From: an uncultured Parabacteroides sp.
GTDB lineage: Bacteria; Bacteroidota; Bacteroidia; Bacteroidales; Tannerellaceae
Reading direction: 5' to 3'
DNA length: 64,000 nucleotides
Assembly: GCA_963560035.1 (NCBI GenBank)
Contig: CAUWMZ010000002.1
Span: forward strand, 35,685-99,684
Shown one piece after another: positions 2,008 through 26,506 of the stretch; positions within the stretch are counted from its first letter, which is position 1; every line of letters begins with the position of its first letter. A model generated the notes under the pieces. The model worked only from the letters and a program-made list of their open reading frames with translations. It was not told the origin of the DNA and did not search any database. Made by a program: the position numbers and the translations under genes.

Positions 2008-3233
2008 ATTTTATTTGTGCATATGAACATTGTACCGCTTGTTGTGCGTGTTTAAATATTTGTCCTAAAAGTGCAATTAAACTGGAAGAAAAAGGTCCAT
2101 TAGGTTTTTTTCATCCAACAATTGATCAGTCTTTGTGTATAGATTGTGGACTTTGTGAAAAGATTTGCCCTGTAAATCATCCAGTAACTTTGAATAAGCC
2201 AATATCTTCATATGCTGTTACTTGTAAAAATGAATCGGAAGTAAAAGCTAGTGCTTCAGGTGGAGCGGCTTATGCATTATCTAAAAAAATATTGGAAGAT
2301 GGAGGAGTAGTGTACGGTTGTGAAATGGAAGATTATAGAACGATAAAACATTGTCGTTATACAACAGAGCATGATATGGAGCGTATGCGTGGATCTAAAT
2401 ATGTGCAAAGTAATATAGGATTAATATTAAAATCTGTAAAAGATGATTTGATGCGAGGGAATAAGGTGCTTTTTACAGGTACACCTTGTCAAGTTGCGGG
2501 ATTAAAGTCTTTTTTGCGTAAAGATTATGATAATCTATATACGGTAGATTTAGTTTGTCATGGTGTTCCGTCTCAAAAATTGTTACGTGAAGATATTGAA
2601 TCTATTTTAGATCAGCAGGGCATTTCCATACCTGTAGGGTTGAAAGTGCATTTTAGAGAAAAGCGTTTATCTAAAAATGCAAAGCTGGATATTAAGTATG
2701 GAGTTTTTTTTGATGAGAATATGTCTTTATTGGGACAAGAATTTTTACGAAATAATTATATAACATCATTTATGTCTTGTCTTACAATACGAGATAATTG
2801 CTATACTTGTGTTTATGCTCAAGCAAGACGTTGTAGTGATATTACTGTTGCTGATTATTGGGGATTAGGAGACAACTGCGTGGTAAATCGGCAAAATGGT
2901 ATTTCTCTTTTATTGCCTTCAACAAAGAAAGGTGTATCTCTGTTAAATGCATCTAAAAAATTTATGCTCTGGCAAGAACGTACTGTCGAAGAGGCAATAA
3001 ATGGAAATGGTCGTTTAATGTCACCGTCTGTAGTGCCTATAAATCGCCAATCTTTTATTCAAGATTATCAATGTTATGGAGTAAAAGCTTATGATAAACA
3101 TTTGAAGAAGTATCGGAAGGAATATGTTAGAAAGGAAAAACTGACATCTTTTGTGAAAGAACATCCGTTTTATGCGTTACCAATTCGATTTTATTGGAAA
3201 ATATCTCGTTTATTATCAAAAGTGATATCCTAA
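2004..3233 (+). CDS. Coenzyme F420 hydrogenase/dehydrogenase beta-subunit-like protein with N-terminal 2x[4Fe-4S] ferredoxin domain
   Basis: CTACCACLNICP and CIDCGLCEKICP clusters, SASGG, GSKYVQS, GTPCQVAGL, DLVCHGVPS, CYTC and SDITVADYWG motifs. Confidence 0.85.
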   Translation: MNFICAYEHCTACCACLNICPKSAIKLEEKGPLGFFHPTIDQSLCIDCGLCEKICPVNHPVTLNKPISSYAVTCKNESEVKASASGGAAYALSKKILEDGGVVYGCEMEDYRTIKHCRYTTEHDMERMRGSKYVQSNIGLILKSVKDDLMRGNKVLFTGTPCQVAGLKSFLRKDYDNLYTVDLVCHGVPSQKLLREDIESILDQQGISIPVGLKVHFREKRLSKNAKLDIKYGVFFDENMSLLGQEFLRNNYITSFMSCLTIRDNCYTCVYAQARRCSDITVADYWGLGDNCVVNRQNGISLLLPSTKKGVSLLNASKKFMLWQERTVEEAINGNGRLMSPSVVPINRQSFIQDYQCYGVKAYDKHLKKYRKEYVRKEKLTSFVKEHPFYALPIRFYWKISRLLSKVIS

Positions 3234-8260: not shown

Positions 8261-9448
8261 ATGAATATAGTTATAATAGCAAATTTTTCCGCTAATTTGG
8301 ATGGTTCTTCTATGGGACGTTTCACCTATTTGGGTGAAATGTTATCTGCAAGGGGTCATGATGTGAGAATATTAACATCAAGTTTTGATCATGGGAAAAA
8401 AACTCAGCGGTCAAAAGTTTGGGATAAATTTAAATCTAAGATTTGTTTATTGTATGAGCCTGGTTATCCAAATAATGTTTGTTTAAAGCGTTTTTATAGT
8501 CATTATATATGGGGTTGTAATGTCAAGAAATATTTAGATGCATTAGCCGTAAAACCGGATGTCGTTTATTGTGCTTTACCATCATTGACTGCGGCGGTAA
8601 AGACTGCTAATTATTGCAGAAAGAATAATGTCAAATTTATCGTTGATATTCAAGATTTATGGCCTGAATCGTTTGCAATGGTATTGAAGTATAGTATATT
8701 AAGTTTATTTTTGAAGCCATTTGAGTGGTATGTTAATAAAGCATATTCGGCAGCGGATGTTGTAGTTGCGGTATCAGACACATATATTAAGCGATGTTTA
8801 GCTGTAAATAGGCAAGCAAAAGATTATGTATCGGTGTTCTTAGGAAATGATGGTGATGAGTTTGATAAGGGGAAAAAGAAATATTCGATAAGTCATTCTA
8901 AAAATGAGGTTTGGTTAGCTTATATAGGAACATTAGGTTATAGTTATGATATCCCTTGTGTAATAGATGCTGTGAGTATGGCTGCGAAACATATGCCAAA
9001 AGATATGCAATTAAAATTTGTAGTAATGGGAGATGGTCCATTAAGGCAAAATTTTGAGCGATACGCAAAAGAAAAAAGTATTTACTGCGAATTTATGGGG
9101 AAATTGCCTTATTTACAAATGGTTGGTGTTTTGAGTTCTTGTGATATAGCAATTAACCCAATTATAAAAGGTTCTGCTGCAAGTATAATTAATAAAGTTG
9201 GAGATTATGCTCTTGCTGGTTTGCCTGTTATTAATACTCAAGAGTGTCTAGAGTATCGAGAGTTGGTTGATGCTTATCAATGTGGAATTAATTGTGAAGT
9301 TGGTAATGTTGTTGAAGTTAGTAATGCTATCGTAGATTTAGTGTCCAATGTGTTATTGCGGAGAAAAATGGGAGAAAATTCACGAAAGTTGGGCCTAGAA
9401 AAATTTGATAGAAGAGAGACCTATAAAGCTATAGTAAATTTATTTTAG
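8261..9448 (+). CDS. Glycosyltransferase family 4
   Basis: DIQDLWPE, YIGTLGYSYD, VMGDGP and NKVGDYALAGLPVI motifs (GT-B). Confidence 0.85.
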   Translation: MNIVIIANFSANLDGSSMGRFTYLGEMLSARGHDVRILTSSFDHGKKTQRSKVWDKFKSKICLLYEPGYPNNVCLKRFYSHYIWGCNVKKYLDALAVKPDVVYCALPSLTAAVKTANYCRKNNVKFIVDIQDLWPESFAMVLKYSILSLFLKPFEWYVNKAYSAADVVVAVSDTYIKRCLAVNRQAKDYVSVFLGNDGDEFDKGKKKYSISHSKNEVWLAYIGTLGYSYDIPCVIDAVSMAAKHMPKDMQLKFVVMGDGPLRQNFERYAKEKSIYCEFMGKLPYLQMVGVLSSCDIAINPIIKGSAASIINKVGDYALAGLPVINTQECLEYRELVDAYQCGINCEVGNVVEVSNAIVDLVSNVLLRRKMGENSRKLGLEKFDRRETYKAIVNLF

Positions 9449-9457
9449 AGGGGAATT

Positions 9458-10087
9458 ATGTATAAACATTTTTTTAAGCGGTTATTCGATTTTATTATTG
9501 TCTTATGTGTTCTGATGATGATATGGCCTATTTTGTTGTTGATTACTATTTGGCTTCATTTTGCGAATAAAGGGGCAGGTGCTTTTTTTACACAAGAGAG
9601 AGTCGGAAAAGGGGAAAAGCCTTTTAAGATATATAAATTTAAAAGTATGACAGATGAACGAGATGCAAATGGTGATTTATTACCAGATGCACAAAGGTTA
9701 ACCGCCATTGGTGCGTTCATTAGAAAAACAAGCATTGATGAGTTGCCTCAATTGTTTAATGTTCTAAAGGGAGATATGGCTTTGATAGGTCCACGGCCGT
9801 TGTTACCTGAATATTTACCATATTATACAGAGCGTGAGCGTTTGCGTCATACTGTACGGTCTGGTATTTCTGGATGGGCACAAGTGCATGGAAGAAATAA
9901 TTTGACATGGAATCAGAAGTTGGAATATGATGCCTATTATGTAGAACATTTGAGTTTGAAAATGGATTTAATTGTATTACTGGTTACTGTAAAAAATATA
10001 GTGAAAGTAGGAAAGGATGTGGTAATAATTCCAGGCGAGAAAGCAGGAAAACTAAATGTGGAACGAGCTAATTGTAGGTTGAAATGA
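9458..10087 (+). CDS. Initiating phosphoglycosyl (sugar) transferase, PglC-like
   Basis: KRLFD, single TM, FFTQERVG, FKIYKFKSM, DELPQLFNVLKGDMALIGPRP and GISGWAQVHGRN motifs. Confidence 0.9.
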   Translation: MYKHFFKRLFDFIIVLCVLMMIWPILLLITIWLHFANKGAGAFFTQERVGKGEKPFKIYKFKSMTDERDANGDLLPDAQRLTAIGAFIRKTSIDELPQLFNVLKGDMALIGPRPLLPEYLPYYTERERLRHTVRSGISGWAQVHGRNNLTWNQKLEYDAYYVEHLSLKMDLIVLLVTVKNIVKVGKDVVIIPGEKAGKLNVERANCRLK

Positions 10088-10587
10088 ATATAAGGTTTTT
10101 AACTGAAGAAGATTTGCAAATTCGGATACAATGGATGAATGATCCAAAAGTGTATAAAAGTATGCATTTTGAAGTTCCTGTTCATTTAGAGAATACTTAT
10201 AAGTGGTTTTTTGATGCTAAGAATAATAAAAGTCGAGTTGATATGGTTTTTGAAGAAGACGGTTTGTTAGTTGCAATGGGAGGATTAACAAATATAATTC
10301 ATGATATAAATAAAGCTGAACTTTATATTTTTGTGAACCCTAAAATTCAGCAAAAAGGTATTGGAACTAGTGCGACTAAACTGTTATGTCAATATGGATT
10401 TGAAATTCTAAATTTAAATAAAATATACTTGGCAACAAATGAAGATAATTTTGCCGCTAGAAGGGTATATGAAAAATGTGGGTTTTCTTTGGAAGGTGTT
10501 TTAAGACAAGAATATAAAACAGAAGATGGAACATTGTTAAGTAGAATGTATTATGGCTTATTGAAGGGAGAATTGTTAAATGAGTAA
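10084..10587 (+). CDS. GNAT N-acetyltransferase (RimJ/RimL, PseH/SpeG-like)
   Basis: QQKGIGT acetyl-CoA motif, LNLNKIYL and NFAARRVYEKCGFSLEG. Confidence 0.8.
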   Translation: MNIRFLTEEDLQIRIQWMNDPKVYKSMHFEVPVHLENTYKWFFDAKNNKSRVDMVFEEDGLLVAMGGLTNIIHDINKAELYIFVNPKIQQKGIGTSATKLLCQYGFEILNLNKIYLATNEDNFAARRVYEKCGFSLEGVLRQEYKTEDGTLLSRMYYGLLKGELLNE

Positions 10588-11497
10588 CATTTTTCTGATT
10601 TTAGAAGATTATATTGTAAATGGACAATTTTTAAAAGTTGTTCGAGATGATCTTTACCCTTTTGTTGGAGGAGGAATTAAGGCTCGAAAAGCTATAGCTT
10701 ATGAAAAGTATTTGAAAAAAAATAATTATGATGCTGTTGTTACATGTGGAGGCATACAAAGTAATCATAATCGTGCTATTGCTTTGCTTTGCTCAAAAAA
10801 TGGGTGGAAATGCCATTTGTGTATTCAAGGGTCTGATGAACGTTTTTTAGATGAAAAAGGGAACGCATTGCTGTGTCGTTTAAGTGGTGCAGAATATGAG
10901 TGTATTACTCCTGAAAGAACAGCAACAGCAATGGATGCTGCGATGTTAAAACTACAAAGTGAGGGCTTTAATCCTTTTTATATAATAGGAGGAGGTCATA
11001 ATTTGCCAGGAGGAACATGTTTTGTAGATGCAGTAAAAGAATTAAAAAGGCAATGTGATAAAATTGCATATAAGCCAGATTATATATTTTTGGCTTCAGG
11101 AACAGGATCTACGCAAGCTGGTATTTTAGTTGGCTTAGATTTAGTTGGTTGGGGGGATGTTAAATGTATAGGGATATCGGTTGCTCGTCAACAGGGACGA
11201 GGAAAGCGTGTGATCGCTGAGTTTGCTAATATGTTAGCACATTATTATAATATACCAAAGGATTATACAAAGAGCGTTTATTTTAACGATAATTATCTTT
11301 TTGGTGGATATGAGCGATATGTTTTTGAAATGGAGGATTATTTAAAACAAATGACGCGATTGACAGGAATGATATTTGATACAACATATTCTGGAAAAGG
11401 CTTTTATGGCATGATGTGTGAAATAGAAAAACATCATTTACAAGATAAGCGTATTTTATTTTGGCATACGGGAGGATTAATGAATTTAATGAAATAG
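10580..11497 (+). CDS. PLP-dependent enzyme, ACC deaminase/D-cysteine desulfhydrase family (D-CDes-type residues)
   Basis: RDDL..GGGIKARK (PLP lysine), GGIQSNHNR, SGTGSTQAG, DTTYSGK and FWHTGG. YSGK/HTGG resemble D-cysteine desulfhydrases rather than true ACC deaminases (YEGK/HLGG). Confidence 0.85.
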   Translation: MSNIFLILEDYIVNGQFLKVVRDDLYPFVGGGIKARKAIAYEKYLKKNNYDAVVTCGGIQSNHNRAIALLCSKNGWKCHLCIQGSDERFLDEKGNALLCRLSGAEYECITPERTATAMDAAMLKLQSEGFNPFYIIGGGHNLPGGTCFVDAVKELKRQCDKIAYKPDYIFLASGTGSTQAGILVGLDLVGWGDVKCIGISVARQQGRGKRVIAEFANMLAHYYNIPKDYTKSVYFNDNYLFGGYERYVFEMEDYLKQMTRLTGMIFDTTYSGKGFYGMMCEIEKHHLQDKRILFWHTGGLMNLMK

Positions 11498-11501
11498 TAT
11501 T

Positions 11502-13013
11502 ATGTATTTTTCATCGGATGTAAGGGAACAACTACCACCATTATCATGGTTGGTTATTATGCGAAAAGGTGAAGAAGAAGTTAAGATACTTCGAGGAGTA
11601 CGTGTAGAATGTGAAAAAAATTTTTTTGTTTCAGGTTGTTGGGATGGTGATTTTGAAGCCGTTGATTTTTTGAATGCGCATTTTGCTTGTTGTACAGGAG
11701 GTATCATTGGGAAACACGAAGAGCTTAAATTATGTACTCCAGATCACATGCAAGAATCGATATATTCTGTAAAAAAAGACAATATATATTATTTTTCTAA
11801 TTCTATTGCGTTTATTTTAGCTAAGTTAGAGTATGAATTAGATAAAGGATATATGTTTTATGAGGAAGATTTTAATTCTGTATATTTTGGAATTAAGAGA
11901 TGCGTTAATAATCTTAGATTAGCAAATGGCGAAATATTGACAATGCATAGACTTTGTAATATTTCTATTGATAAAGATTTTAACGTAAAAACAGAAAGAC
12001 GTACTAGTGGTTTGCATTTTTATAATTTTAATGATTATTATAGCAAGTTGTTATGTACGATGAAAAAAATTCGAGATAATGCACAATCTGTATATCGAAA
12101 GTTTCAGTATGGAATGGTTACAACAATTTCTAGAGGATATGATGCTCCATGTGTATCTGTAATTGCTCATGAAATAGGATGTGACAAAGCATTAACTTTT
12201 AACTCTCCTGCTAAATACAAAGAAGATAATGGAGCTGAAATTGCTCGAAAGTTAGGCTTTTCTTCAATAGAAGAAGGAGATGGAAACTTGTATAAAAGTA
12301 ATACGGATTTATGGGAAGCAGAAAATTCAGGAAGTGGAGCGACTGGTTGTGCTGTACAGTTTAATGCGTTTGAAAAAAATTATGAAAATTGTCTTCTTTT
12401 TATGGGGGTGCGTGGAGACTCTTTATGGAATAAAAATGCAGTTGGAGTAAATAGTGATATGGATTATCTTTCTTTAGATACTGATGCAGATCTCAATTTT
12501 GAACATTATTATAGGACAAATACTATAGTGATATATCTTCCTATGTTTGCAGCAGATAGTTGGCCAGATATTCATCGTATTTCAAATAGTGAAGAAATGA
12601 AATCTTGGTGTACTAATAATAATTATGATAGACCTATACCTAGGAGAATTGTTGAGTCAAAAGGCATAGAGCGTAAAGATTTTGGATATGCCAAAATGGG
12701 AGCTGGTATATCTTTGCACTTTGAAACATTAGGGAGATTAAAAAATAAAATGTCACCAATGTCGTATAAATCGTTGTTGGATTTTAAAAAGTCGTTACAT
12801 AGAAATATATTTCAACATGTTTCTATGTATTTCTATGTGATAAAATATTATTTTTATAATTATCACTTTTATTTCAATTATTTATTTGATAGATTCCATA
12901 TTCCAATTTCTTTAAAGGATAGGAGAAAAAAATATATGAGTTCTCCTATTTCTTCTTTATTGATTTTATGGGGAATGTCAGAAATGAAAAAACGATACAA
13001 AAAAGCGTTATAA
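11502..13013 (+). CDS. Hypothetical protein; probable asparagine-synthetase (AsnB)-like ATP-dependent amide synthetase fold
   Basis: TISRGYDAPCVSVIA resembles the SGGLDS PP-loop; LFMGVRGDSLW resembles LSGEGGDELF; DRPIPRRIVE...AKMG resembles the K.LLR...R.K.GF region. No N-terminal Cys. Motif matches are by eye only. Confidence 0.5.
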   Translation: MYFSSDVREQLPPLSWLVIMRKGEEEVKILRGVRVECEKNFFVSGCWDGDFEAVDFLNAHFACCTGGIIGKHEELKLCTPDHMQESIYSVKKDNIYYFSNSIAFILAKLEYELDKGYMFYEEDFNSVYFGIKRCVNNLRLANGEILTMHRLCNISIDKDFNVKTERRTSGLHFYNFNDYYSKLLCTMKKIRDNAQSVYRKFQYGMVTTISRGYDAPCVSVIAHEIGCDKALTFNSPAKYKEDNGAEIARKLGFSSIEEGDGNLYKSNTDLWEAENSGSGATGCAVQFNAFEKNYENCLLFMGVRGDSLWNKNAVGVNSDMDYLSLDTDADLNFEHYYRTNTIVIYLPMFAADSWPDIHRISNSEEMKSWCTNNNYDRPIPRRIVESKGIERKDFGYAKMGAGISLHFETLGRLKNKMSPMSYKSLLDFKKSLHRNIFQHVSMYFYVIKYYFYNYHFYFNYLFDRFHIPISLKDRRKKYMSSPISSLLILWGMSEMKKRYKKAL

Positions 13014-13014
13014 T

Positions 13015-14022
13015 ATGAATATTCTATTTACATGCGCAGGAAGGCGCACATACCTATTGAAATATTTTAGGGAAAATATGTGCGCAGAAGATAAGATTGT
13101 GGCAACAGATATGCAGCTTTCTGCTCCTGCTTTGCAGGCTGCAGATATAAAAATTCAGGTGCCAGCTGTATATGATCCGCAGTATTTAGATATTACACTG
13201 AATATCTGTCAGGATCAAAATATTGATTTGCTTATTAGCTTGAATGACTTGGAGTTGCCTATTCTTTCTGAGAATAAGGCTCGTTTTGAAAATTTGGGTG
13301 TGAAGGTGCTTGTATCAGATCCTGATATAATTAATATTTGTTTTGATAAATATAAAACAGCGCAATGGGTTGAATCTATTGGTATAGCTTCTCCAAAGAC
13401 TTATGTTCGTCTGGAAGATGTCAAAAGGGCTTTAGAGACAGGAGAGATTGCGTTTCCTCTGTTTATGAAACCTCGTTGGGGGTCAGGCTCTATCGGTTTG
13501 GAGTCAATTGCTGATATAGAGGAATTAGATATTTATTATCACTTATTGATGAAAAAAATCAAGAGATCTATTTTAGCGACAGCCTCTATTGGTGATGAGT
13601 ATATTATTATTCAAGAGAAGTTGATTGGAAATGAATTTGGATTGGATGTGATGAATGATTTGGAAGGGAGTAATGTGGCGGTTTCTGTTAAGCGGAAATT
13701 GGCAATGCGTGCTGGTGAGACAGATAAGGCTGAAACTATAGATCTTCCGAATGTTCGAGAAATGGGTCGAAAGATCGGAAGTATGTTAAGGCATATTGGA
13801 AATTTGGATGTGGATATTATGCAAAGAGCAAATGGTGATTATTGTGTTTTAGAGTTAAATCCACGATTTGGAGGAGGTTTCCCTTTTAGTTATGAAGCGG
13901 GTGTTAATATGCCAAAGGCTATTATTCAATGGATCAAAGGAGAAAAAGTGAATCCATCTATATTAGTTCCACAATATGGTAAAACGTTTTCAAAAAATGA
14001 TTATTTAGTGGAGATAAAATAA
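13015..14022 (+). CDS. ATP-grasp domain protein (carbamoyl-phosphate-synthase-like/PylC-like amide ligase)
   Basis: NILFTCAGRR, ICFDKY, FMKPRWGSGSIG, IQEKLIGNEF and ELNPRFGGG motifs. Confidence 0.85.
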   Translation: MNILFTCAGRRTYLLKYFRENMCAEDKIVATDMQLSAPALQAADIKIQVPAVYDPQYLDITLNICQDQNIDLLISLNDLELPILSENKARFENLGVKVLVSDPDIINICFDKYKTAQWVESIGIASPKTYVRLEDVKRALETGEIAFPLFMKPRWGSGSIGLESIADIEELDIYYHLLMKKIKRSILATASIGDEYIIIQEKLIGNEFGLDVMNDLEGSNVAVSVKRKLAMRAGETDKAETIDLPNVREMGRKIGSMLRHIGNLDVDIMQRANGDYCVLELNPRFGGGFPFSYEAGVNMPKAIIQWIKGEKVNPSILVPQYGKTFSKNDYLVEIK

Positions 14023-14148
14023 AGTTTACGTCAGATAGAGTAGAAATAGAGATATAAATTTTTATTCTGTGAATTGATATTTTAATATTTATCAAAAGAA
14101 ATCAGGTTTGGATATTTTTGAAAAGCATATTAATATTTGAAATATCAG

Positions 14149-14156
14149 TACTTTTG
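14149..14156 (+). promoter_or_regulatory. Bacteroidota sigma-A -7 box (TACTTTTG), internal promoter for the aminotransferase
   Basis: Exact TAnnTTTG match 25 nt before the ATG, in the only long (159 bp) intergenic gap of the locus; no clear -33 box. Confidence 0.5.
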
Positions 14157-14181
14157 CATAAATAATAAAAGTTTAGTATAG

Positions 14182-15444
14182 ATGATTGAAGAGAGAAAGA
14201 CTATATACCTTTGTTTGGCGCATATGTCGGAGGATGGTATTGAGCAGAAATATGTAAAAGAGGCTTTTGACACGAATTGGGTTGTGCCATTGGGACCGAA
14301 CGTGAATGCTTTTGAGGAAGACTTGAAAGAGTTTGTTGGCGGAAAGAATGAGATTGTGGCCTTATCAGCCGGTACTGCCGCTGTGCATTTGGCTTTGTTG
14401 GCTTGTGGCGTTGGACAGGGTGATGAGGTGTTGGTGCAGAGCTTTACTTTCTGCGCTTCGTCTCATCCTATTACTTATTTGGGGGCTTCTCCTGTGTTTA
14501 TCGATTCTGAACCTAATACGTGGAATATGGATCCTGACTTGTTGGAAACGGCTATTAAGGATCGGATAGAGAAGACCGGAAAGAAGCCGAAGGCGATAGT
14601 CCCTGTCGCATTGTATGGTATGCCGTATGACTGTATGCGTATTATGGAGATAGCGAATCGTTATGATATACCGGTGGTGGAAGATGCGGCTGAGGGATTT
14701 GGATCTCGTTTTAATGGACAAGTATTGGGTACGTTTGGTAAATTTGGCGTATTGTCTTTTAATGGTAATAAGATGATTACGACTTCCGGAGGTGGCGCCT
14801 TGATTTGTCAAAATATGGAAGATAAGAACAAAATCATGTGGTATGCTACACAGGCTCGTGAGGCTTATCCGTATTATCAGCATGAGGAGATCGGCTATAA
14901 TTATCGTATGAGTAATATTTGTGCCGGTATTGGTCGTGGCCAGATGACAGTGGCAGATGATCATATCGCGCATCATAAGCATGTTCAAGCTTTATATGAG
15001 AAGTTGTTGGGAGATGTGAATGGGGTTACTGTTCATGCGCAACCGACATTTGGTGAATATGACTCTAATTTTTGGCTTTGTACAATTACATTAGATCCAT
15101 CTTTGAAGATATTAGGTCAGGAAAATGCATATAAGGAGGTGATTAAGACGGCTGTTGGTGGTGCGGCAGGCGTTATTCATGCGGTAGATTCAGCGACAAC
15201 GGATTGTCAGCCGAATGAAAATGTGGAGGCATTACGTGTCTATTTGTTATCGAAGAAAATAGAATCTCGTCCGGTATGGAAACCTATGCATAAACAGCCG
15301 GTTTATAAACATGCGGTGGCTTATGTAAACGGCGTTTCTGAATCGATATTTAAGGTGGGTATGTGTCTCCCTGCGGGACCTTATGTGTCTGATGAGGATG
15401 TTAAGTATATCGTCTCCTCAATAAAGGAGGCTATTGTTGGCTAA
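14182..15444 (+). CDS. DegT/DnrJ/EryC1/StrS family sugar aminotransferase (PglE-like)
   Basis: SAGTAAVHLAL, FTFCAS, VEDAAEGFG, SFNGNKMITTSGGG, GYNYRMSN and ESRPVWKPMH motifs. Confidence 0.92.
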   Translation: MIEERKTIYLCLAHMSEDGIEQKYVKEAFDTNWVVPLGPNVNAFEEDLKEFVGGKNEIVALSAGTAAVHLALLACGVGQGDEVLVQSFTFCASSHPITYLGASPVFIDSEPNTWNMDPDLLETAIKDRIEKTGKKPKAIVPVALYGMPYDCMRIMEIANRYDIPVVEDAAEGFGSRFNGQVLGTFGKFGVLSFNGNKMITTSGGGALICQNMEDKNKIMWYATQAREAYPYYQHEEIGYNYRMSNICAGIGRGQMTVADDHIAHHKHVQALYEKLLGDVNGVTVHAQPTFGEYDSNFWLCTITLDPSLKILGQENAYKEVIKTAVGGAAGVIHAVDSATTDCQPNENVEALRVYLLSKKIESRPVWKPMHKQPVYKHAVAYVNGVSESIFKVGMCLPAGPYVSDEDVKYIVSSIKEAIVG

Positions 15445-15488
15445 AGGAATGGATATTGATATGAATGTATCGTATTTATAGAGATAGG

Positions 15489-15522
15489 AGGTTGGACTTT
15501 GACTGAAAGTCCAACCTTTTTT
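15489..15522 (+). terminator. Intrinsic terminator ending the first polysaccharide locus
   Basis: 12-bp perfect stem AGGTTGGACTTT/AAAGTCCAACCT, loop GACTG, T-run. Confidence 0.85.
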
Positions 15523-15627
15523 GTTTGCGAGAGAATAGGCCTGTCACATTCTTATTTTTGTACTTTCGCGTAATTGTTGCATGTGGATCTTCCGAAAGGA
15601 GGATGTCTGTGGTATATCTGGTTTATA

Positions 15628-17061
15628 ATGGCGGAACAATCATTGAAAGAGAAGACAGCGAAAGGGCTTTTTTGGGGTGGCTTAAGCAATGGGGCGATGC
15701 AAGTCGTGGGGCTTGTTGTGGGAATTATCTTATTGAAATTCTTGTCTCCTGATGATTATGGTATTGTTGGGTTGTTGACGATATTTTCCGGAATCGCTTC
15801 GACGATACAGGAGAGTGGTTTTACGATGGCGTTAGTTAATAGGTCCGGATTTAAACATGAGGATTATAACGCTGTTTTTTGGTTTAATGTCGTTGTAGGA
15901 TGGGGATTATATTTGATCTTGTTTCTGTTGGCGCCTTGTATCGCCGCCTTTTATGGGAAGCCCGAACTGGTCTCTTTATCCCGTTTCTCGTTTCTTTCTT
16001 TCGCGGTAGCGAGCATGGGTATCGCTCATAATGCGTTGTTGATGAAAGAACTGAAGGTAAAGGAGCGTTCGGAGGCTGACATTATAGCGATTTCCCTTTC
16101 AGGTGTGATAGCGATTTTATTGGCTTTAAAAGGTTATGGCTATTGGACGTTGGTGATACAACAGTTTGTTTATACATCGTCGTGGAGTTTACTTCGTTGG
16201 CGTTTTTCTTCATGGAGACCGACTTTTCATTGGGATATGCGACCGTTGAAAGAGATGTTTAGTTTTAGTCTTAAGTTATTGTTCTCTTCGATTATTACCC
16301 AAGTGCACGCTAATATTTTTTCGGTTTTGCTGGGTAAATTTAATACGGTAGCGAATGTGGGTTATTTTGCGCAAGGAACGAAATGGGCTAATATGGGCTC
16401 GATGTTGATTAATGGCATGGTGAGTGGTGTGGCGCAACCTGTGTTTGTGGAGGTTCAAGCAGAAAGGGAGCGACTGGTGCAAGTGTTTCGTAAATTATTG
16501 CGTTTTGTATCGTTTGTCTCATTTCCTCTTATGTTAGGATTAGCTTTTGTTGGTCAGGAGTTCATCGGTATGATCAATAGCGATTGGTTGCCAAGTGTTC
16601 CAATTTTGCAAATGTATTGTGTAGCTGGCGCATTCGCTCCGATACAGGTGCTGTATAGTCAAATGATAGTCAGTCAAGGTCGTTCTGATTTTTATTTTTG
16701 GTGTACAATATTGTATGCTTGCGCACAGATAGGTGTAGCTTGCTGGGCTTTGCGTTATGGTATTTATTGGATGGCTTGCGCAAATATGTTGGTGTCATTT
16801 ATCTATTTAGGAGTATGGCATCTTTTTGCCGGTCGAGTGTTGTCGATATGTTTATGGGCTGTATTGAAAGATATAGCTCCTTATTTAATAATTGTCTCGA
16901 TTTGTTTTGGTTGTGCGTGGGCTGCGCTTTATGCCGTGGATAACAATTTCTTAAGGTTTTTTGGAAAGATCATGATATCTGCGCTTCTTTATGTAGGGGC
17001 GATGTGGAAATTGGATTCTGTGGTATTTAAGGAGAGTGTTCGTTTTTTTATTAAGAAATAG
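15628..17061 (+). CDS. wzx: Polysaccharide flippase (WzxC-like lipopolysaccharide biosynthesis protein)
   Basis: MAEQSLKEKTAKGLFWG start (ATG 15628 preferred to the ORF-track start); LSPDDYG, ESGFTMALV and VGYFAQG; many TMs. Confidence 0.85.
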   Translation: MAEQSLKEKTAKGLFWGGLSNGAMQVVGLVVGIILLKFLSPDDYGIVGLLTIFSGIASTIQESGFTMALVNRSGFKHEDYNAVFWFNVVVGWGLYLILFLLAPCIAAFYGKPELVSLSRFSFLSFAVASMGIAHNALLMKELKVKERSEADIIAISLSGVIAILLALKGYGYWTLVIQQFVYTSSWSLLRWRFSSWRPTFHWDMRPLKEMFSFSLKLLFSSIITQVHANIFSVLLGKFNTVANVGYFAQGTKWANMGSMLINGMVSGVAQPVFVEVQAERERLVQVFRKLLRFVSFVSFPLMLGLAFVGQEFIGMINSDWLPSVPILQMYCVAGAFAPIQVLYSQMIVSQGRSDFYFWCTILYACAQIGVACWALRYGIYWMACANMLVSFIYLGVWHLFAGRVLSICLWAVLKDIAPYLIIVSICFGCAWAALYAVDNNFLRFFGKIMISALLYVGAMWKLDSVVFKESVRFFIKK

Positions 17062-17071
17062 GCAGAGAGAT

Positions 17072-17983
17072 ATGGATGTTTCAATCATTATCGTAAACTA
17101 TAATACGCGACAATTGCTGCAAGATTGTATCCGTTCGCTTTACGAGAAAACCAAGCGGTGCACATTTGAGGTGATCGTTGTAGATAATCATTCTTTGGAG
17201 TTGATAGAGGAAAATGATTTTCAGGAGTATCCTCAATGTCAAGTGCTTTGGATGAAAGATAATTTGGGCTTTGGAAAGGCGAATAATGAAGGTATAAAGA
17301 TCGCCAAGGGAGAGTTTGTGTTGTTCCTTAATTCGGATACGCTTTTGATAAATGACGCAGTATCGGAACTGTGCGATTATATGCGGAAGCATAAGAAGGT
17401 AGGTGTTTGTGGCGGAAATTTATATACTAAAGAGGGTTTGCCCAATATGTCTTATACAATGACATTTCCAACGGTGTCAGATTATTTCTCGTTGCTTCTT
17501 GGCTTAAAAAGGCGCACTGTGGAGGAGCTGTTTAATAAGGATAATCGGGCGAAGGCTATTGGAGGATATATATCGGGCGCTGACTTAATGATGCGGAGGG
17601 AGTTCTTAGAGCGTTATGGAGGATTTGATCCGGATTTCTTTATGTATTTTGAAGATGTGGAACTTTGTTATCGAGCAAGTCGATATGGTCTTGAGATACA
17701 TTCGGTTCCATCTGCACAAATTATACATTTGCAAGGCGGTTCTACCTTGGTGAAAGGTGAAGGCATGAAGACTCGTTCTCGGGCTTATCTTTTGCGAAGT
17801 GAGTTTCTCTATTTTAGAAAAAGGTCGAATCGTATGGCTCTTCGGCTGTTATGGCTAGGATATTGGATGAAGACATGGGGGGCCTTGTTTATTTATTCAT
17901 GCTTGAGACGTTCGCAGAGAGTGAATTATTGGAAAACAATGTGGAGTGTATTAAGGGATGTGCGCGATGAAAAAATTGTATGA
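17072..17983 (+). CDS. Glycosyltransferase family 2 (rhamnosyltransferase-like)
   Basis: MDVSIIIVNYN, VVDNHS, NLGFGKANN, FLNSDT and FFMYFEDVELC motifs. Confidence 0.9.
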   Translation: MDVSIIIVNYNTRQLLQDCIRSLYEKTKRCTFEVIVVDNHSLELIEENDFQEYPQCQVLWMKDNLGFGKANNEGIKIAKGEFVLFLNSDTLLINDAVSELCDYMRKHKKVGVCGGNLYTKEGLPNMSYTMTFPTVSDYFSLLLGLKRRTVEELFNKDNRAKAIGGYISGADLMMRREFLERYGGFDPDFFMYFEDVELCYRASRYGLEIHSVPSAQIIHLQGGSTLVKGEGMKTRSRAYLLRSEFLYFRKRSNRMALRLLWLGYWMKTWGALFIYSCLRRSQRVNYWKTMWSVLRDVRDEKIV

Positions 17984-18761
17984 GGGAGTTTGTAAACAAA
18001 TTCGTAAACTGTTTTATTTGAGTAAGCCCTATCTTTCTTGGATTCTTGCTTCTTTACGTGGTGTAAAGCCATTGAAGGCGCACGAGATACCGATTATTAT
18101 TAATAACAGAAATCGGTATTCTTGTTTGAAACGTTTAATAGCAGCGCTGGAATCGAGAGGCTATCGTAATATTTATGTGATAGATAACGCTTCAACTTAT
18201 CCACCATTGTTGGAATATTATGAAAAAGAATATTCTTATCGATTGATTCGATTAGAGAAGAATGTGGGACATTTATCGTTGTGGCGAACGGGATTGATAG
18301 ATCGTTTTCGTTCAAATTATTTTGTCTATACTGATCCTGATGTCTTGCCGATAGAAGATTGCCCTTCTGATTTTCTGGACTGTTTTTTAGCTTATTTAAA
18401 GCGACATCCTTTTGTGGAAAAGGTGGGTTTTGCGTTGAAGATAGATGATTTGCCGGATGAATATGATAAAAAGTCTCAGGTAATAGCTTGGGAGAGTCAA
18501 TTTTGGAGACGGAAGAGTTTGGAGGGAAATATCGCCTTTTATAAAGCGGCTATAGATACAACTTTTGCGCTTTATCGACCGATGTATATTGAAGGAGGAT
18601 TCCTTTCGTCGCCTCATGTACGTGTAGGCTATCCTTATGAAGCACGTCATTTACCTTGGTACAACGATTCGTCTTGTCTGGATGAGGAAGAACGTTATTA
18701 TTTGAATCATTGCGAGACGCCTTCCCATTGGAGTAAAGGAGACGTCTTGCGTGGATTATGA
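17967..18761 (+). CDS. Glycosyltransferase family 2-like protein
   Basis: IIINNRNR, VIDNASTYPPL, FVYTDPD and AAIDTTFALY; overlaps the previous stop codon. Confidence 0.7.
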   Translation: MKKLYEGVCKQIRKLFYLSKPYLSWILASLRGVKPLKAHEIPIIINNRNRYSCLKRLIAALESRGYRNIYVIDNASTYPPLLEYYEKEYSYRLIRLEKNVGHLSLWRTGLIDRFRSNYFVYTDPDVLPIEDCPSDFLDCFLAYLKRHPFVEKVGFALKIDDLPDEYDKKSQVIAWESQFWRRKSLEGNIAFYKAAIDTTFALYRPMYIEGGFLSSPHVRVGYPYEARHLPWYNDSSCLDEEERYYLNHCETPSHWSKGDVLRGL

Positions 18762-19703
18762 TTGAAGTCGCTTTTTTAGTTTCATAAGCAGATTAAAAAG
18801 CCCGATACGTTTTAGAAGTAGTTTGATGTAAAGGCGAGTGGCACTTTTGCCATCCATGATGAAGGAGCGGAAATATGCTTCCTCTTCTTTTCTGTTATGT
18901 TCGATATGAGGGTTGTGTATAAGCGGTAAGATAGCTTCTGTTGTTCGATCGGCAAGGGGAGAGTTCTTGTCTGTCGTATTGACGGCCCCTTCTCCAAATC
19001 CTATATTTGACACAAGATTCACCTTTGGCGAGATTGCCAGGAGATGATTGAACCATAGGCAGAATGTCAGTTGATAATCCCAGGTGGGAATCTCTTTTCG
19101 AGCAATCTGTTTGAAAATGGTTTCCCAATAAGCTCGCTCTTTCAGTGTGGGAAAATTTTCATGTAATGTATGCTTTAACACATCGGGAGTGATATGTGAT
19201 AAATCTAATGTATATTTATCAATCGTGCGTCGCCAGGTTGCCCATCCCCAAATGTGATTATAGAGCGTAAAGGTATATGAGAAAGGGAAGTGAGGATCTG
19301 GGATAAAATTGGGTCCGGAGATCGCTCCGATCCGTGGATTATCTTTATATTTGTCAAGTAATTCCTCACAGTAAAGGAAGAAGTCCGGATGAGGCAGACA
19401 GTCATGCTCTAATATGATACCTTGTTCTTCTTGAGAGAAGAACCATTTGATGAAAGTATAAGGGCCGTGTGATGGGCCGACATTTTCTTTCAAGAAAAGG
19501 GTCTTTACCTGACAAGGCCAATCAACTTGTTTGGCGAGAGAGCGGGTTTGTTGGCAGGCTTTATCTTCGCCGTCTTTATTGAGGCGGGGACCATCGCAGG
19601 CGATATAGAGCTTTTGTGGTTGCGCTTTACGTATAGCCTCAAAAACACGAGATGCCGTATCGAAGCGATTAAATACGATAAAGAGTATGGGTGTCCGTAA
19701 CAT
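18756..19703 (-). CDS. Nucleotide-diphospho-sugar transferase (GT-A, HlpA-like), inverted relative to the cluster
   Basis: TPILFIVFNR, LYIACDGPR, ILEHDC, WGWATW, WDYQ and NLVSNIGFG motifs. Confidence 0.85.
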   Translation of the reverse strand: MLRTPILFIVFNRFDTASRVFEAIRKAQPQKLYIACDGPRLNKDGEDKACQQTRSLAKQVDWPCQVKTLFLKENVGPSHGPYTFIKWFFSQEEQGIILEHDCLPHPDFFLYCEELLDKYKDNPRIGAISGPNFIPDPHFPFSYTFTLYNHIWGWATWRRTIDKYTLDLSHITPDVLKHTLHENFPTLKERAYWETIFKQIARKEIPTWDYQLTFCLWFNHLLAISPKVNLVSNIGFGEGAVNTTDKNSPLADRTTEAILPLIHNPHIEHNRKEEEAYFRSFIMDGKSATRLYIKLLLKRIGLFNLLMKLKKRLQS

Positions 19704-19724
19704 TCTTCTTTGTTTATGTCTGCG

Positions 19725-19732
19725 CGAAGATA
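19725..19732 (-). promoter_or_regulatory. Near-consensus -7 box (TATCTTCG) for the inverted GT
   Basis: One mismatch to TAnnTTTG, 21 nt upstream of the ATG at 19703. Confidence 0.4.
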
Positions 19733-19736
19733 GTAT

Positions 19737-20618
19737 ATGGTGAGGAATGCCACAAGTTTAGAAAAAGGGTATATGGAATTGAGTTTAAAGATTGAGCAGG
19801 TGAAGTCCGCTATTCGGAAAAGATGGATGAAGCCTAAACAAAAGTGTTTGGGAACTTGGTTGTCAAAGGGGTATGTGAATGCTCCGTTAGTTACGTTTAT
19901 TATTCAATCTCATAATAAAAGTGTGCAGGTCCAGCATGTGGTAGAGAAGTTGAGGTGCTATCCGAAAGCGGAAATTATCGTGGTTGATGATGGCTCGAAC
20001 TTCACGCATCATGTTTCATTGATGAAGTTCTTGAATCAAGGCAATGAGTTCCTTGTTCGAGCGAATGATTTGTACGAGAATGTGATGTATGATAAGACAA
20101 TTCGTATGGCGAATGGTCGTTATATCGCTTTATTGCAAGATGATGATGATTTCAGAGATTTGACATGGGTGGAAGATGCGATCTCCTATTTTCAACGTTA
20201 TCCGAAGTTGGCTATCTTGGGTGGACGAGACTATTTGGATTTTTCTATTGATAAAGAAAATAAGTGTTTTAATATTTTGCTTCAAACACCTCAAGCGAGT
20301 GAGAAGTTTCGTTTTGTGGCGCATGTGAATCGTGCTCCGATGTGGATTTGTAAGGATTTATTTCAAGAACGGTTGAAACATATTAACTTCGATTTTGCGC
20401 CTTTTCAATTTGACGATATAGAACTGTGCTTGCGAGCTTGGCTGAATGATTGTCAAGTGGGATGGTATCGAACGGAGTTTCATTCTTTGAGTGCTGGTGG
20501 AATGCGTATATGGAATAATGCTTTCGCGCAAGACCAATGTCGTAGGAATAGCCAAAAACTATATACGCTGTTTAAAGAGAAAGATGAAGAGATTCATCAA
20601 ATCATGAACAGGCAATGA
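19737..20618 (+). CDS. Glycosyltransferase family 2
   Basis: VTFIIQSHN, IIVVDDGS, ALLQDDDD and FDDIELCLR motifs; true start may be the later MELSLK. Confidence 0.75.
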   Translation: MVRNATSLEKGYMELSLKIEQVKSAIRKRWMKPKQKCLGTWLSKGYVNAPLVTFIIQSHNKSVQVQHVVEKLRCYPKAEIIVVDDGSNFTHHVSLMKFLNQGNEFLVRANDLYENVMYDKTIRMANGRYIALLQDDDDFRDLTWVEDAISYFQRYPKLAILGGRDYLDFSIDKENKCFNILLQTPQASEKFRFVAHVNRAPMWICKDLFQERLKHINFDFAPFQFDDIELCLRAWLNDCQVGWYRTEFHSLSAGGMRIWNNAFAQDQCRRNSQKLYTLFKEKDEEIHQIMNRQ

Positions 20619-21886
20619 AGGTATTGATATTAAGTACATCTGAAGGTACTGGAGGTGCGGCTGTCGCCGCTAATCGTTTAATGAACGCTTTGTCGAAAAG
20701 TGGCGTGAGCGTGAAGATGTTGGTACGTGATAGAAAAAGCGATGATCCTCGGGTTGTAGCCTTGAATGATAGACTCGCTTTCAAACGTTTTAATTTTATC
20801 CGTTTTGTTTGGGAGCGACTGATTATCTTTTTGTGTAATCACTTGAGAAGGACATCGCTGTTTCAGGTGTCTATCGCTAATACAGGGACAGATATTTCTC
20901 ATCATCCCTTAGTGGAAGAGGCGGATATTATTCATTTACATTGGGTTAATCAAGGATTTTTATCGTTGCTTGATATTAAACGCTTGATAGAAACAGGAAA
21001 GCCTGTTGTGTGGACAATGCATGATATGTGGCCTTGTACTGCGATTTGTCATTATTCGTATGGGTGTGAGCGTTTTCATGACTCATGTGGTTGTTGTCCG
21101 TTTTTATATTCTCATTGGAAGTTTGATTTATCTTATTTTACTTTTCAAAAGAAGCGTTTCTTTAAAGAATCGAAATTGCAGTTAGTGGCTGTTAGTTCTT
21201 GGTTGAAAGAGCAGGCAATGTATAGTGCCTTGACAAAGGGGTTGCCTGTTGAGGTAATACCGAATGTGATAGATACGGACATTTTTAAGCCGGGAGATAA
21301 GGATAAGGCACGTGAGGAGCTTTGTTTGCCTCGCCATAAGCGAATTTTATTGATGGGTGCTGCTCGGATAAACAATCCGATAAAGGGATTGGACTATCTG
21401 ATTCGTGCGCTTTCTATCTTGAAGGCAGAAGAACAAGGGGCGGATGATTCTTTATTCGTGGTTTTGTTTGGTGGTATTAAAGGAGATGATTCTTTCTTGA
21501 AACAACTCCCTGTTTCTTTTGAGGCTATGGGCTTATTACATGATACGACTAAGATCGCAAAATTATATATGGCGGCGGATGTGACAGTGGTACCTTCGCT
21601 TTATGAGACTTTTGGACAGACTATCATTGAGGGCATGGCGTGTGGTTGTCCTGCTGTAACTTTCAATAATAGTGGACAAACAGATATTATAGATCATAAG
21701 AAAGACGGTTATTTAGCGAGGTATAAAGATCCAGAAGATTTGGCTCGCGGTATTCGTTGGGCTTTGTCTCATGCGGATGATATGTCCCTGAAAGAGGCTT
21801 GTGCACAGAAGGTGAAGGATCGTTATCGGGAGTCTGTTGTTGCCGAGAAGTATATTAATTTGTATCAACATTTAAGAAAAGAATAA
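20615..21886 (+). CDS. Glycosyltransferase family 4 (WcaC-like)
   Basis: GGAAVAANRL, IIHLHW, VWTMHDMW, KGLDYL and ETFGQTIIEGMACG motifs. Confidence 0.9.
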   Translation: MKVLILSTSEGTGGAAVAANRLMNALSKSGVSVKMLVRDRKSDDPRVVALNDRLAFKRFNFIRFVWERLIIFLCNHLRRTSLFQVSIANTGTDISHHPLVEEADIIHLHWVNQGFLSLLDIKRLIETGKPVVWTMHDMWPCTAICHYSYGCERFHDSCGCCPFLYSHWKFDLSYFTFQKKRFFKESKLQLVAVSSWLKEQAMYSALTKGLPVEVIPNVIDTDIFKPGDKDKAREELCLPRHKRILLMGAARINNPIKGLDYLIRALSILKAEEQGADDSLFVVLFGGIKGDDSFLKQLPVSFEAMGLLHDTTKIAKLYMAADVTVVPSLYETFGQTIIEGMACGCPAVTFNNSGQTDIIDHKKDGYLARYKDPEDLARGIRWALSHADDMSLKEACAQKVKDRYRESVVAEKYINLYQHLRKE

Positions 21887-21887
21887 C

Positions 21888-22649: not shown

Positions 22650-22672
22650 ATAATAAATTATAGATAGATCTT

Positions 22673-25180: not shown

Positions 25181-25220
25181 TATGTTTATATGTCTCAATA
25201 AATATTTTTTTTGAGACAAT

Positions 25221-25271
25221 GAAGAGCGTTCTTGAAAAGTTCTGCAATAAAACTTTTCAAGAACGCTCTTC
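25221..25271. repeat. 21-bp perfect inverted repeat between convergent genes (probable bidirectional terminator)
   Basis: GAAGAGCGTTCTTGAAAAGTT (25221-25241), 9-nt loop, AACTTTTCAAGAACGCTCTTC (25251-25271). Confidence 0.8.
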
Positions 25272-25293
25272 TTATTTAAGGTATAGACTTATT

Positions 25294-26418: not shown

Positions 26419-26506
26419 ATCGAAAATATTTTTAAGGATGAATAAAGGAGGGCTAAAAAACGTGTGACAAATCATCTCACCGTTTTTTAGCCCTGCTATG
26501 GTTTGA

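Follow-up and report, generated by a model that had tools for sequence, protein, structure and literature searches.

In gut Bacteroidales the capsule influences how the cell is recognised by the immune system, how susceptible it is to phages and how it colonises, and the zwitterionic-polysaccharide effect depends centrally on the charge carried by the first, 4-amino sugar. In Neisseria, the ATP-grasp of PglB2 gives the glyceramido-acetamido-trideoxyhexose of O-linked protein glycosylation. In Bacillus cereus ATCC 14579, a UDP-yelosamine pathway consisting of the dehydratase Pdeg, the aminotransferase Pat and the ATP-grasp ligase Pyl was reportedly described by Hwang et al. in J Biol Chem in 2014. 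B. cereus Pyl ligates 2-oxoglutarate to UDP-4-amino-FucNAc and is encoded beside a small phosphoglycosyl transferase (PGT) (PMC11626204). An amide-linked 2-hydroxyglutaryl group occurs on the QuiNAc4N of a Bacteroidota O-antigen (PMC4052302), and in the type B flagellin locus of Clostridioides difficile the formation of a peptidyl-amido Fuc3N capped with taurine, alanine and glycine requires a FemAB-like protein, a sugar aminotransferase and an ATP-grasp resembling carbamoyl-phosphate synthetase (PMC5207246, PMC5207245). Here we analyse a 64,000-nucleotide stretch of DNA, referred to as the window, from contig CAUWMZ010000002.1 of an uncultured Parabacteroides species, in which four translationally coupled genes lie between a PglC-type PGT and a PglE-type sugar aminotransferase. 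These cassette genes encode a GNAT N-acetyltransferase, a fold-type II pyridoxal-phosphate (PLP) enzyme, an unannotated 503-residue protein that we name X503, and an ATP-grasp carboxylate-amine ligase.

We consider it somewhat better than an even bet, with a probability of about 0.55, that the cassette places a small, capped side group of amino-acid type, rather than a plain acetyl, on the first sugar of the capsule, by a combination of N4-acylation, capping and amidation. A preliminary description of this DNA had suggested an amino-acyl or dipeptidyl substituent made without a nonribosomal peptide synthetase (NRPS). The best reading is still that the first sugar is decorated, without an NRPS, by an aminoacyl or peptidyl-amide group, its "amino-acyl or dipeptidyl" nature being what we infer.

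Results

The cassette and its flanking sugar enzymes

The overlaps and spacers of the four genes (Table 1) are as tight as the preliminary description had reported, and its assignment of the two flanking genes is likewise upheld by their nearest relatives in the Protein Data Bank (PDB). The PGT, a protein of 209 residues that comprises the Bac_transf core only (positions 1-178 of the 179 in PF02397), is closest to PglC (8e37 and 8g1n, E 7e-62), and the aminotransferase to Campylobacter jejuni PglE (1o61, E 9e-86; 4ztc, E 6e-85). The latter scores 335 against the LegC-family model, below the cut-off of 420, and appears to be a PglE-type enzyme; the amine of its product may be axial or equatorial. 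Among 31 related loci, a PGT homologue adjoins the cassette in 30 and the aminotransferase is found in 21; a GT4 of the same single-linkage cluster as that of the window adjoins it in 23, although this clustering is loose and the evidence weak. A dehydratase of PglF/CapD type, 653 residues long, is encoded on another contig of the same genome. No hexapeptide or PglD-type protein (PglD_N plus left-handed β-helix) was found among the open reading frames (ORFs) of the window profiled up to 29.7 kb, and a crude scan for repeats in all six frames of the full window gave no convincing hexapeptide run, in agreement with the earlier statement that no PglD/NeuD acetyltransferase is visible.

The GNAT is closest in the PDB to SpeG, a spermidine N1-acetyltransferase (E 4e-18), with PseH (4ri1) at only 1e-8; its best NCBIfam match is nevertheless the PseH model (72.6 bits, E 4e-20), at a score below the cut-off of 93. 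It is optional, being present in 17 of the 31 cassette loci, and in six loci a 321-residue FemAB/Acetyltransf_6 protein stands in its place, adjoining the PLP gene. The N-acetyltransferase that had been predicted here is thus confirmed as a GNAT, but one nearest to the polyamine type and replaceable by a FemAB-like protein.

The nearest relative of the PLP enzyme is the Salmonella D-cysteine desulfhydrase DcyD (4d8t, E 3e-30), yet it falls below every curated cut-off (TIGR01275, 160 bits against 289; CuyA, about 167 against 450; the D-Cys desulfhydrase models, 109-114 against 429-610). In the alignment with 4d8t, GGIKARK is matched with GGNKLRK, which carries the PLP lysine, IQSNH with IQSNH, YSGK with YTGK, and HTGG with HTGG. 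The motifs G-x-K-A-R-K, Y-[ST]-G-K and HTGG recur across the 69 relatives scanned, and the N-to-I change in the enzyme of the window is at a position that is variable among them (N/S/G/T). Judged by these residues, the enzyme keeps the full D-cysteine-desulfhydrase catalytic set. It resembles DcyD and the 1-aminocyclopropane-1-carboxylate (ACC) deaminase family in fold II, the lysine, the Ser-Asn-His loop, the Tyr-Ser/Thr pair and the Thr, with a signature of the desulfhydrase type and not the Glu/Leu ACC-deaminase type. Known members of this family are stand-alone catabolic lyases, whereas here the scores are far under the equivalog cut-offs, the gene is coupled into a glycan operon, and in three loci it is fused to a GNAT. 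The fold-II PLP genes of Bacteroidales form two clades, one of which is never found with a cap or X503, while the other, which includes that of the window, is found with GNAT, Fem and/or X503.

Recurrence of the gene set and gene fusions

Co-occurrence of the genes in other sugar loci had been set in advance as a test of the idea. When 78 genome loci were fetched around relatives of X503, some 30 of the 44 nearest (about 33% identity or more) were found to carry homologues of the transferase, the PLP enzyme, the ATP-grasp and usually the aminotransferase, in near-identical order and across phyla; the set was absent from all 44 more distant X503 loci. The four genes thus belong with one another and with the priming transferase and aminotransferase, and the idea passes that test. 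Such an arrangement goes far beyond what chance would give; the independent loci with this gene set number about 30. The carriers include Odoribacter, Muribaculaceae and other Bacteroidales among the Bacteroidota, Lachnospiraceae, Anaerostipes, Ruminococcus, Catenibacterium, Schnuerera, Anaeromonas, Desemzia and Pisciglobus among the Firmicutes, and one Vreelandella outside these two phyla.

Several of the genes are fused. GNAT-PLP fusions occur in three loci (L007, L034, L044), a GNAT-ATP-grasp fusion in Vreelandella (L019), and an ATP-grasp-PglD_N/hexapeptide fusion in two Muribaculaceae loci (L003:9479-11182 and L004:12194-13900). The latter two loci also hold GNAT, PLP and X503 genes, a gene content that implies two different N-acylations in one pathway. 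Tandem X503 paralogues are found in Carnobacteriaceae, in L010 and in a metagenome-assembled genome of Odoribacter.

The set can also be incomplete. X503 stands without the PLP gene in L022, L024 and L035, and in L024 the PLP enzyme is replaced by a class I/II amino-acid aminotransferase and a D-2-hydroxyacid dehydrogenase, the ATP-grasp and X503 being kept; this content fits a dicarboxylic 2-substituted acid whose second carboxylate would be made into an amide by X503. Cultured Peribacillus frigoritolerans has the order CapD-AT-PGT-GNAT-PALP-ATP-grasp-GT4-FnlABC (AT, aminotransferase), without X503. Among other cultured carriers, Desemzia sp. RIT804 and Pisciglobus halotolerans DSM 27630 combine Fem, PLP and ATP-grasp genes with two copies of X503, and Vreelandella zhuhanensis holds the complete set. 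In a C. difficile locus from a third-party-annotation (TPA) assembly (L171, GCA_043364975.1) the order is aminotransferase-PGT-formyltransferase-ATP-grasp, followed by an unannotated 632-residue protein that is full in the sister locus L170; the position of the formyltransferase suggests an N-formyl cap.

Fold and family of X503

X503 matches no Pfam or NCBIfam family at E 0.01, Asn_synthase and GATase_7 included. A phmmer search gave no PDB sequence match, a PDB profile search nothing relevant, and a tblastn search of plasmids no match, while hhalign against four AsnB-like proteins encoded beside distant X503 relatives gave an E of 0.22, which is not significant. AlphaFold2, supplied with a 20-sequence alignment, gave a confident model, with a pLDDT of 91.3 and a pTM of 0.91. 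Foldseek matches this model in the PDB to β-lactam synthetase (1jgt, E 1e-10) and carbapenam synthetase (1q15, 5e-9), followed by the hydroxyamidotransferase TsnB9 (7ylz, 3e-8) and human asparagine synthetase (9b6c, 9e-6), over 470-520 aligned columns and with a TM-score of about 0.5. X503 is accordingly predicted to have the two-domain, Ntn-like plus PP-loop synthetase fold of the asparagine-synthetase/β-lactam-synthetase superfamily. The description of X503 as AsnB-like is thus supported at the level of predicted fold and not at that of sequence profiles.

The protein starts with MYF, and none of 20 aligned relatives starts with Met-Cys (the consensus is MKF). Because no family member begins in this way, X503 has no glutaminase nucleophile, a feature in which it is like β-lactam synthetase. 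Ser210, Gly212, Tyr213 and Asp214 (S-x-G-Y-D) are invariant in the 20 relatives, the window's version being SRGYDA, and this is the only stretch that hhalign aligns, pairing it with the LSGGYDS of AsnB-type proteins in the same non-significant alignment. By comparison with S-G-G-x-D-S this putative PP-loop is deviant, its second glycine being replaced by arginine or lysine. X503 resembles β-lactam synthetase, carbapenam synthetase and AsnB in its predicted two-domain fold, with a motif like that of a PP-loop, S-x-G-x-D, where the nucleotide-binding domain starts, and is set apart from them by an identity of only about 10-12%, the lack of a Pfam Asn_synthase match, an aromatic-rich helical C-terminus (residues ~436-502) and its setting in a glycan locus. 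One metagenomic protein of 975 residues (P0323) joins an X503 domain to a membrane fatty-acid-hydroxylase domain at its C-terminus. X503 may act at the membrane, on a lipid-linked sugar.

Relatives of X503 are present in 405 of about 185,000 species genomes, and at 50% identity they form 2272 clusters (1151 at E <=1e-30) among 1.84 billion representatives. Those in the databases are named "hypothetical protein" (for example WP_257490703.1, WP_204211765.1 and WP_160417745.1). X503 is thus a discrete and sizeable family that is recognised by no profile database searched. Its distant relatives, in Proteobacteria, Rokubacteria and others, often adjoin an AsnB-like protein of 480-690 residues with a canonical SGGxDS PP-loop (L045, L054, L056, L057, L062, L064, L066, L067, L073, L076), and the two such neighbours that were profiled also match the GATase_7 domain; these may be two-protein amidotransferase pairs. 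Apart from these occasional AsnB-like genes, the neighbours of the distant relatives include no conserved partner and give no functional lead.

The ATP-grasp and the variable slot

The ATP-grasp scores 401 bits against NF009404 (the PRK12767.1-3 model), above the cut-off of 316, and has Pfam PylC-like_N and ATP-grasp_3/4 domains; the nearest solved structure is that of an uncharacterised structural-genomics protein (2pn1, E 2e-51). Its neighbours are a small PGT and a sugar 4-aminotransferase, an adjacency seen in the window and in over 100 loci. Its relatives at 80% identity or more number over 120 clusters, whereas the nearest relatives of X503 are 69% and then 48% identical. Close relatives of the ATP-grasp in Bacteroidales most often stand in the order GT4-PGT-[LysA-like fold-III decarboxylase]-ATP-grasp-(gap)-aminotransferase.

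In 80 metagenome loci with an ATP-grasp 78-83% identical to that of the window, we scanned the slot between this gene and the transferase, counting its content in the 59 loci with at least 3.5 kb 5' of the ATP-grasp. The PLP gene alone fills the slot in 25 loci and the decarboxylase in 16, while 7 hold none of the probed genes ("alone" and "none" meaning that no other probed gene was found there). The GNAT, PLP and X503 genes of the window are found together in 5 loci, GNAT and PLP in 3, and Fem with PLP, Fem with PLP and X503, and GNAT alone in 1 each. X503 appears in Bacteroidales only where the PLP enzyme and an amine cap are both present. Less common contents, present in part of these loci and in further ones, pair an acyltransferase with a second ATP-grasp, a short-chain dehydrogenase/reductase (SDR) and a ketoacyl synthase III (KAS III) with a hexapeptide transferase, PGA_cap with an AMP-binding enzyme, or a D-2-hydroxyacid dehydrogenase with a class I/II aminotransferase; a formyltransferase also occurs as a filler. 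The decarboxylase variant (L085, L088 and 16-24 further loci) has the same transferase-slot-ATP-grasp-aminotransferase frame, with an ATP-grasp 79-84% identical to that of the window, and differs in that a single fold-III PLP decarboxylase fills the slot where the window has GNAT, fold-II PLP enzyme and X503.

On a tree of the ATP-grasp the slot contexts are completely intermixed. The ATP-grasp proteins of L115, with a PLP gene in its slot, and L116, with a decarboxylase, are identical, and the DNA of the two loci goes abruptly from 79% to 96% identity at L115 6492/L116 7987, 13 nt before the ATP-grasp start codon. The ATP-grasp seems to be a homologous flank for the exchange of capsule loci. 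The preliminary description had grouped it with the other three genes in one cassette; it is not their specific partner, for in gut Bacteroidales the ATP-grasp is a generic gene of a conserved right flank, with many different neighbours. The transferase, by contrast, co-varies with slot content, its identity being at most 79-85% between slot types and up to 100% within a type. In one gut metagenome contig (L086:1-3884), IS66-family transposase genes are inserted just 5' of a GT4-PGT-decarboxylase-ATP-grasp module and stand in place of the remaining capsule genes found in L085.

The surrounding operon

Table 1. Genes and other features at the 3' end of the capsule operon, with their positions in the window
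Feature	Coordinates	Strand	Remarks
GT4-family glycosyltransferase	8261..9448	+	Pfam Glycos_transf_1 / Glyco_transf_4; probable second-sugar transferase; directly 5' of priming transferase
PGT, small PglC-type polyprenyl-phosphate phosphoglycosyl transferase (priming enzyme)	9458..10087	+	Bac_transf 202 bits
GNAT N-acetyltransferase, SpeG-like	10084..10587	+	Acetyltransf_3 72.9 bits; 4-nt overlap with PGT
Fold-type II PLP enzyme, D-cysteine desulfhydrase / ACC deaminase family	10580..11497	+	PALP 79.9 bits; 8-nt overlap with GNAT
X503, unannotated 503-residue protein	11502..13013	+	Predicted asparagine-synthetase/β-lactam-synthetase fold; 4-nt spacer after PLP gene
ATP-grasp carboxylate-amine ligase, PRK12767 type	13015..14022	+	NF009404 401 bits; 1-nt spacer after X503
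PglE-type DegT sugar 4-aminotransferase	14182..15444	+	DegT_DnrJ_EryC1 294 bits; 159-nt spacer after ATP-grasp
Terminator-like hairpin closing the operon	15486..15520	+	15-pair stem, then T run

We read the segment in Table 1 as the 3' "first-sugar module" of a Bacteroidales capsule operon of Wzx/Wzy type. The first 15.5 kb of the window form the 3' part of this single co-oriented operon, which starts just 5' of the window, after metG, with a gene of UDP-glucose 6-dehydrogenase type (L084:13641-14978; NF011631 528 bits; TIGR03026 296 bits, above its cut-off). The dehydrogenase gene is followed by those of a flippase, a pyruvyl transferase with an FrhB-like protein, a GT2, a DXD glycosyltransferase, a Wzy-type polymerase, two further GT2 enzymes and the GT4, and then by the cassette. 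The G+C content is 28-33% up to about position 14,000 and about 40% beyond, with the step at the ATP-grasp/aminotransferase boundary.

The polysaccharide pyruvyl transferase is translationally coupled to the FrhB/FdhB-like iron-sulfur protein (window 880-3233), and the same pair is found in the unrelated Bacteroidales locus L088. After the terminator lies a second glycan locus (15574-26553), which comprises a flippase (start 15574), four GT2 enzymes, a GT4, an 835-residue YfhO-like membrane protein and a divergent GT4; it has a normal G+C content of about 40% and no priming transferase of its own within the stretch examined.

Discussion

How might these enzymes act together? The scheme that we propose builds on the gene content, folds, catalytic motifs, synteny, fusions and modular slot described above, and every substrate in it, the order of its steps and the reaction of the PLP enzyme are our proposals. 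A UDP-2-acetamido-4-amino-2,4,6-trideoxyhexose would be the joint product of the PglE-type aminotransferase and of the PglF-type dehydratase whose gene lies elsewhere in the genome. The ATP-grasp would then acylate the 4-amino group of this sugar via an acyl-phosphate; the acyl donor would be a carboxylic or amino acid, and the reaction would stand in for acetylation by a PglD-type enzyme. We take the ATP-grasp to act on N4 because the frame as a whole, with its dehydratase, PglE-type and PglC-type enzymes, no PglD and an ATP-grasp in the PglD position, matches the solutions of Pyl and PglB2. The three slot enzymes would tailor the side group so attached. The PLP enzyme may make or remodel an α-amino-acid centre, leaving an amine, which the SpeG-like GNAT would acetylate; X503, as a putative adenylating enzyme, would activate the remaining carboxylate as an acyl-AMP and use ammonia or another amine to form a second amide. 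The PglC-type transferase would load the decorated sugar onto undecaprenyl phosphate, for extension by the neighbouring GT4. The net product would be a neutral substituent of N-acetyl-aminoacyl-amide (or dipeptidyl) type on the first sugar.

The content of the slot is the main guide to the nature of this side group. It probably carries a free amine, since the neighbours of the PLP gene resemble amine-acylating caps (GNAT, FemAB-like protein, hexapeptide transferase with KAS III) and a formyltransferase occurs in a slot without the PLP gene. X503 and the decarboxylase both need a free carboxylate, which suggests a group of amino-dicarboxylic or dipeptide type whose charge is removed by amidation or decarboxylation. 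For the PLP enzyme our preferred guess is β-replacement or epimerisation at a D-centre; such a reaction keeps the amine, and fits better because of the GNAT-PLP fusions and the association with caps.

Several considerations weigh against this interpretation. The roles of all members are read from genes, predicted folds and motifs. The PLP step is the weak point, in that the enzymes of this family are known as deaminating lyases and would destroy the very amine that the GNAT should cap. The same ATP-grasp, in one pair of loci an identical protein, accompanies very different slot genes, so that either a first step is shared and the slot enzymes tailor its common product, or the ligase is promiscuous toward the acids supplied to it. 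Its likeness to Pyl and PglB2 is one of fold and gene context. X503 fails all sequence-profile tests for the AsnB family and has a deviant PP-loop (S-R-G-Y-D-A against S-G-G-x-D-S), and the covariation of transferase and slot is confounded by linkage.

Finally, the locus encodes an enzyme of UDP-glucose-dehydrogenase type, which makes the carboxylate of a uronic acid an alternative target. The ATP-grasp and/or X503 would then couple a PLP-made, GNAT-capped amine or amino acid to the C6 carboxylate of a glucuronic-type residue, much as C. jejuni Cj1438 couples an amine to such a carboxylate, and AsnB-fold enzymes are known makers of uronamides (AsnB-type WbpS/WbqG). With the dehydrogenase gene at the very start of the operon this has some appeal, but just 2 of 30 cassette loci have an NDP-sugar dehydrogenase within 8 kb, and the figure for the other X503 loci is 2 of 48. 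The cassette is joined instead to the priming transferase and, in the 21 of 31 loci noted above, to the 4-aminotransferase, and when the slot is empty the ATP-grasp and the transferase are directly adjacent; we therefore regard a uronic-acid target as unlikely.

The GNAT might alternatively be a replacement for PglD, acetylating N4 in the manner of PseH to give an ordinary di-N-acetyl sugar, with the PLP enzyme, X503 and ATP-grasp left to make a second substituent or a free small peptide. The PseH model is indeed its best NCBIfam match, PseH 4ri1 is among its PDB matches, and the window has no PglD. This match is under the cut-off, however, with polyamine acetyltransferases of SpeG type closer by ten orders of magnitude, and the slots from which the GNAT is absent (PLP only, decarboxylase and empty) make up 48 of the 59 scorable loci. 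The GNAT can be swapped with a FemAB-like protein, its fusions are to the PLP enzyme or the ATP-grasp and not to the transferase, and the Muribaculaceae loci hold both a GNAT and a PglD-like domain. A GNAT acting in place of PglD is, on these grounds, improbable.

We have also considered that the PLP lyase could be the source of ammonia for X503, standing in for the lost glutaminase domain, so that a carboxylate would become a carboxamide. X503 lacks an N-terminal cysteine, most cassette loci have the PLP gene immediately 5' of X503, and enzymes of the PLP family release ammonia (D-cysteine desulfhydrase, ACC deaminase, cysteate sulfo-lyase), with the catalytic residues intact here. Each gene does, however, occur without the other: in the scorable metagenome loci the PLP gene is alone in 25 and with X503 in 6, Peribacillus likewise has it without X503, and three loci have X503 without the PLP gene. 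The GNAT-PLP fusions, moreover, suggest that the product of the PLP enzyme keeps its amine. The idea of an ammonia-supplying lyase has, in consequence, quite a low probability.

A further reading concerns X503 itself, which could be a cyclase like β-lactam synthetase and not an amidotransferase, so that the first sugar would carry a small lactam (a 3-acylamino-azetidinone or other). In keeping with it, the best structural matches of X503 are two lactam synthetases and not asparagine synthetases, the glutaminase cysteine is missing, and in Bacteroidales X503 is found only beside a PLP enzyme and an amine cap. In a conceivable route, as speculative as the lactam, PLP-dependent β-replacement would add a 2-amino-2-carboxyethyl group to a side-chain amine, the GNAT would cap the primary amine, and X503 would adenylate the carboxylate and close the ring on the secondary amine. 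We rate such a lactam as very unlikely. Least credible is that the four genes make a free small metabolite of capped-dipeptide type and merely hitch-hike in the locus, as sets of ATP-grasp, AsnB-like and PLP enzymes do build free natural products (dapdiamides, tabtoxin), for the genes are always found, translationally coupled, between priming transferase, sugar aminotransferase and glycosyltransferases, no transporter or resistance gene accompanies them in the loci examined, and an ATP-grasp-PglD fusion exists.

If capped aminoacyl decoration of the first sugar is correct, the implications extend well beyond this genome. Many gut Bacteroidales and Firmicutes are indicated not simply to leave the 4-amine free or to acetylate it, but to have a recombining tailoring slot beside a generic ATP-grasp. 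Depending on its content, the slot is predicted to leave the amine free, to cap it or to give a capped amide, and would be a genetic switchboard for surface charge and antigenicity. X503 is now defined as an enzyme family of the asparagine-synthetase/β-lactam-synthetase fold unseen by profile databases, and a PLP enzyme of D-cysteine-desulfhydrase type is placed in a biosynthetic, glycan-linked role. The carriers include cultured organisms (Peribacillus frigoritolerans, Desemzia, Pisciglobus, Vreelandella zhuhanensis), which makes the chemistry directly testable.

How new is this pathway? The preliminary description knew of no characterised pathway with this combination of enzymes. For the ATP-grasp there are in fact precedents in Pyl, PglB2 and the C. 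difficile type B locus, whereas for the full set our literature searches, which covered the gene combination and also the Bacteroides pairing of decarboxylase and ATP-grasp, found nothing. These searches gave no description of a D-cysteine-desulfhydrase-type PLP enzyme and a glutaminase-less enzyme of AsnB/β-lactam-synthetase fold added to ATP-grasp chemistry, nor of the X503 family or of a recombining slot beside a generic ligase.

Comparison with the known systems brings out what is shared and what is not. The C. jejuni Pgl pathway (PglF, PglE, PglD, PglC) provides, in PglE and PglC, the nearest solved relatives of the flanking genes, and a PglF-type dehydratase is present in the genome; here, though, PglD is missing from the window, four other genes are in its place, and the predicted product enters a Wzx/Wzy polysaccharide. 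The B. cereus Pyl system similarly has a DegT aminotransferase and an ATP-grasp beside a small PglC-type transferase, with Pyl acylating the 4-amino group of a UDP-4-amino-6-deoxy-HexNAc with a group other than acetyl. It differs in that the acid is 2-oxoglutarate and that the system is not known to include a fold-II PLP enzyme, a GNAT or an AsnB-fold enzyme; Pyl was not among the 120 best matches of a Firmicutes ATP-grasp query. In Neisseria PglB2, too, an ATP-grasp domain replaces the PglD-type acetyltransferase beside a PglC-type transferase and gives a non-acetyl N4-acyl group, but the domains are fused in one protein, the substituent is a single glyceroyl, there are no further tailoring genes, and the product is used for protein glycosylation and not for a capsule.

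The type B flagellin glycan of C. difficile is a genetically supported case of an NRPS-free peptide on an amino sugar, with both an ATP-grasp and a FemAB-like gene (PMC5207246, PMC5207245). There the sugar is a terminal 3-amino sugar and not a priming 4-amino sugar, an ornithine-cyclodeaminase-like gene contrasts with our fold-II PLP enzyme, and an AsnB-fold enzyme is absent. Another setting, AT-PGT-formyltransferase-ATP-grasp, surrounds the C. difficile ATP-grasp that is 35% identical to that of the window. We conclude that the ATP-grasp part of the pathway is a kind of chemistry already known from such systems, and that it is the addition of the PLP enzyme and X503, together with the slot that holds them, for which our literature searches gave no precedent.

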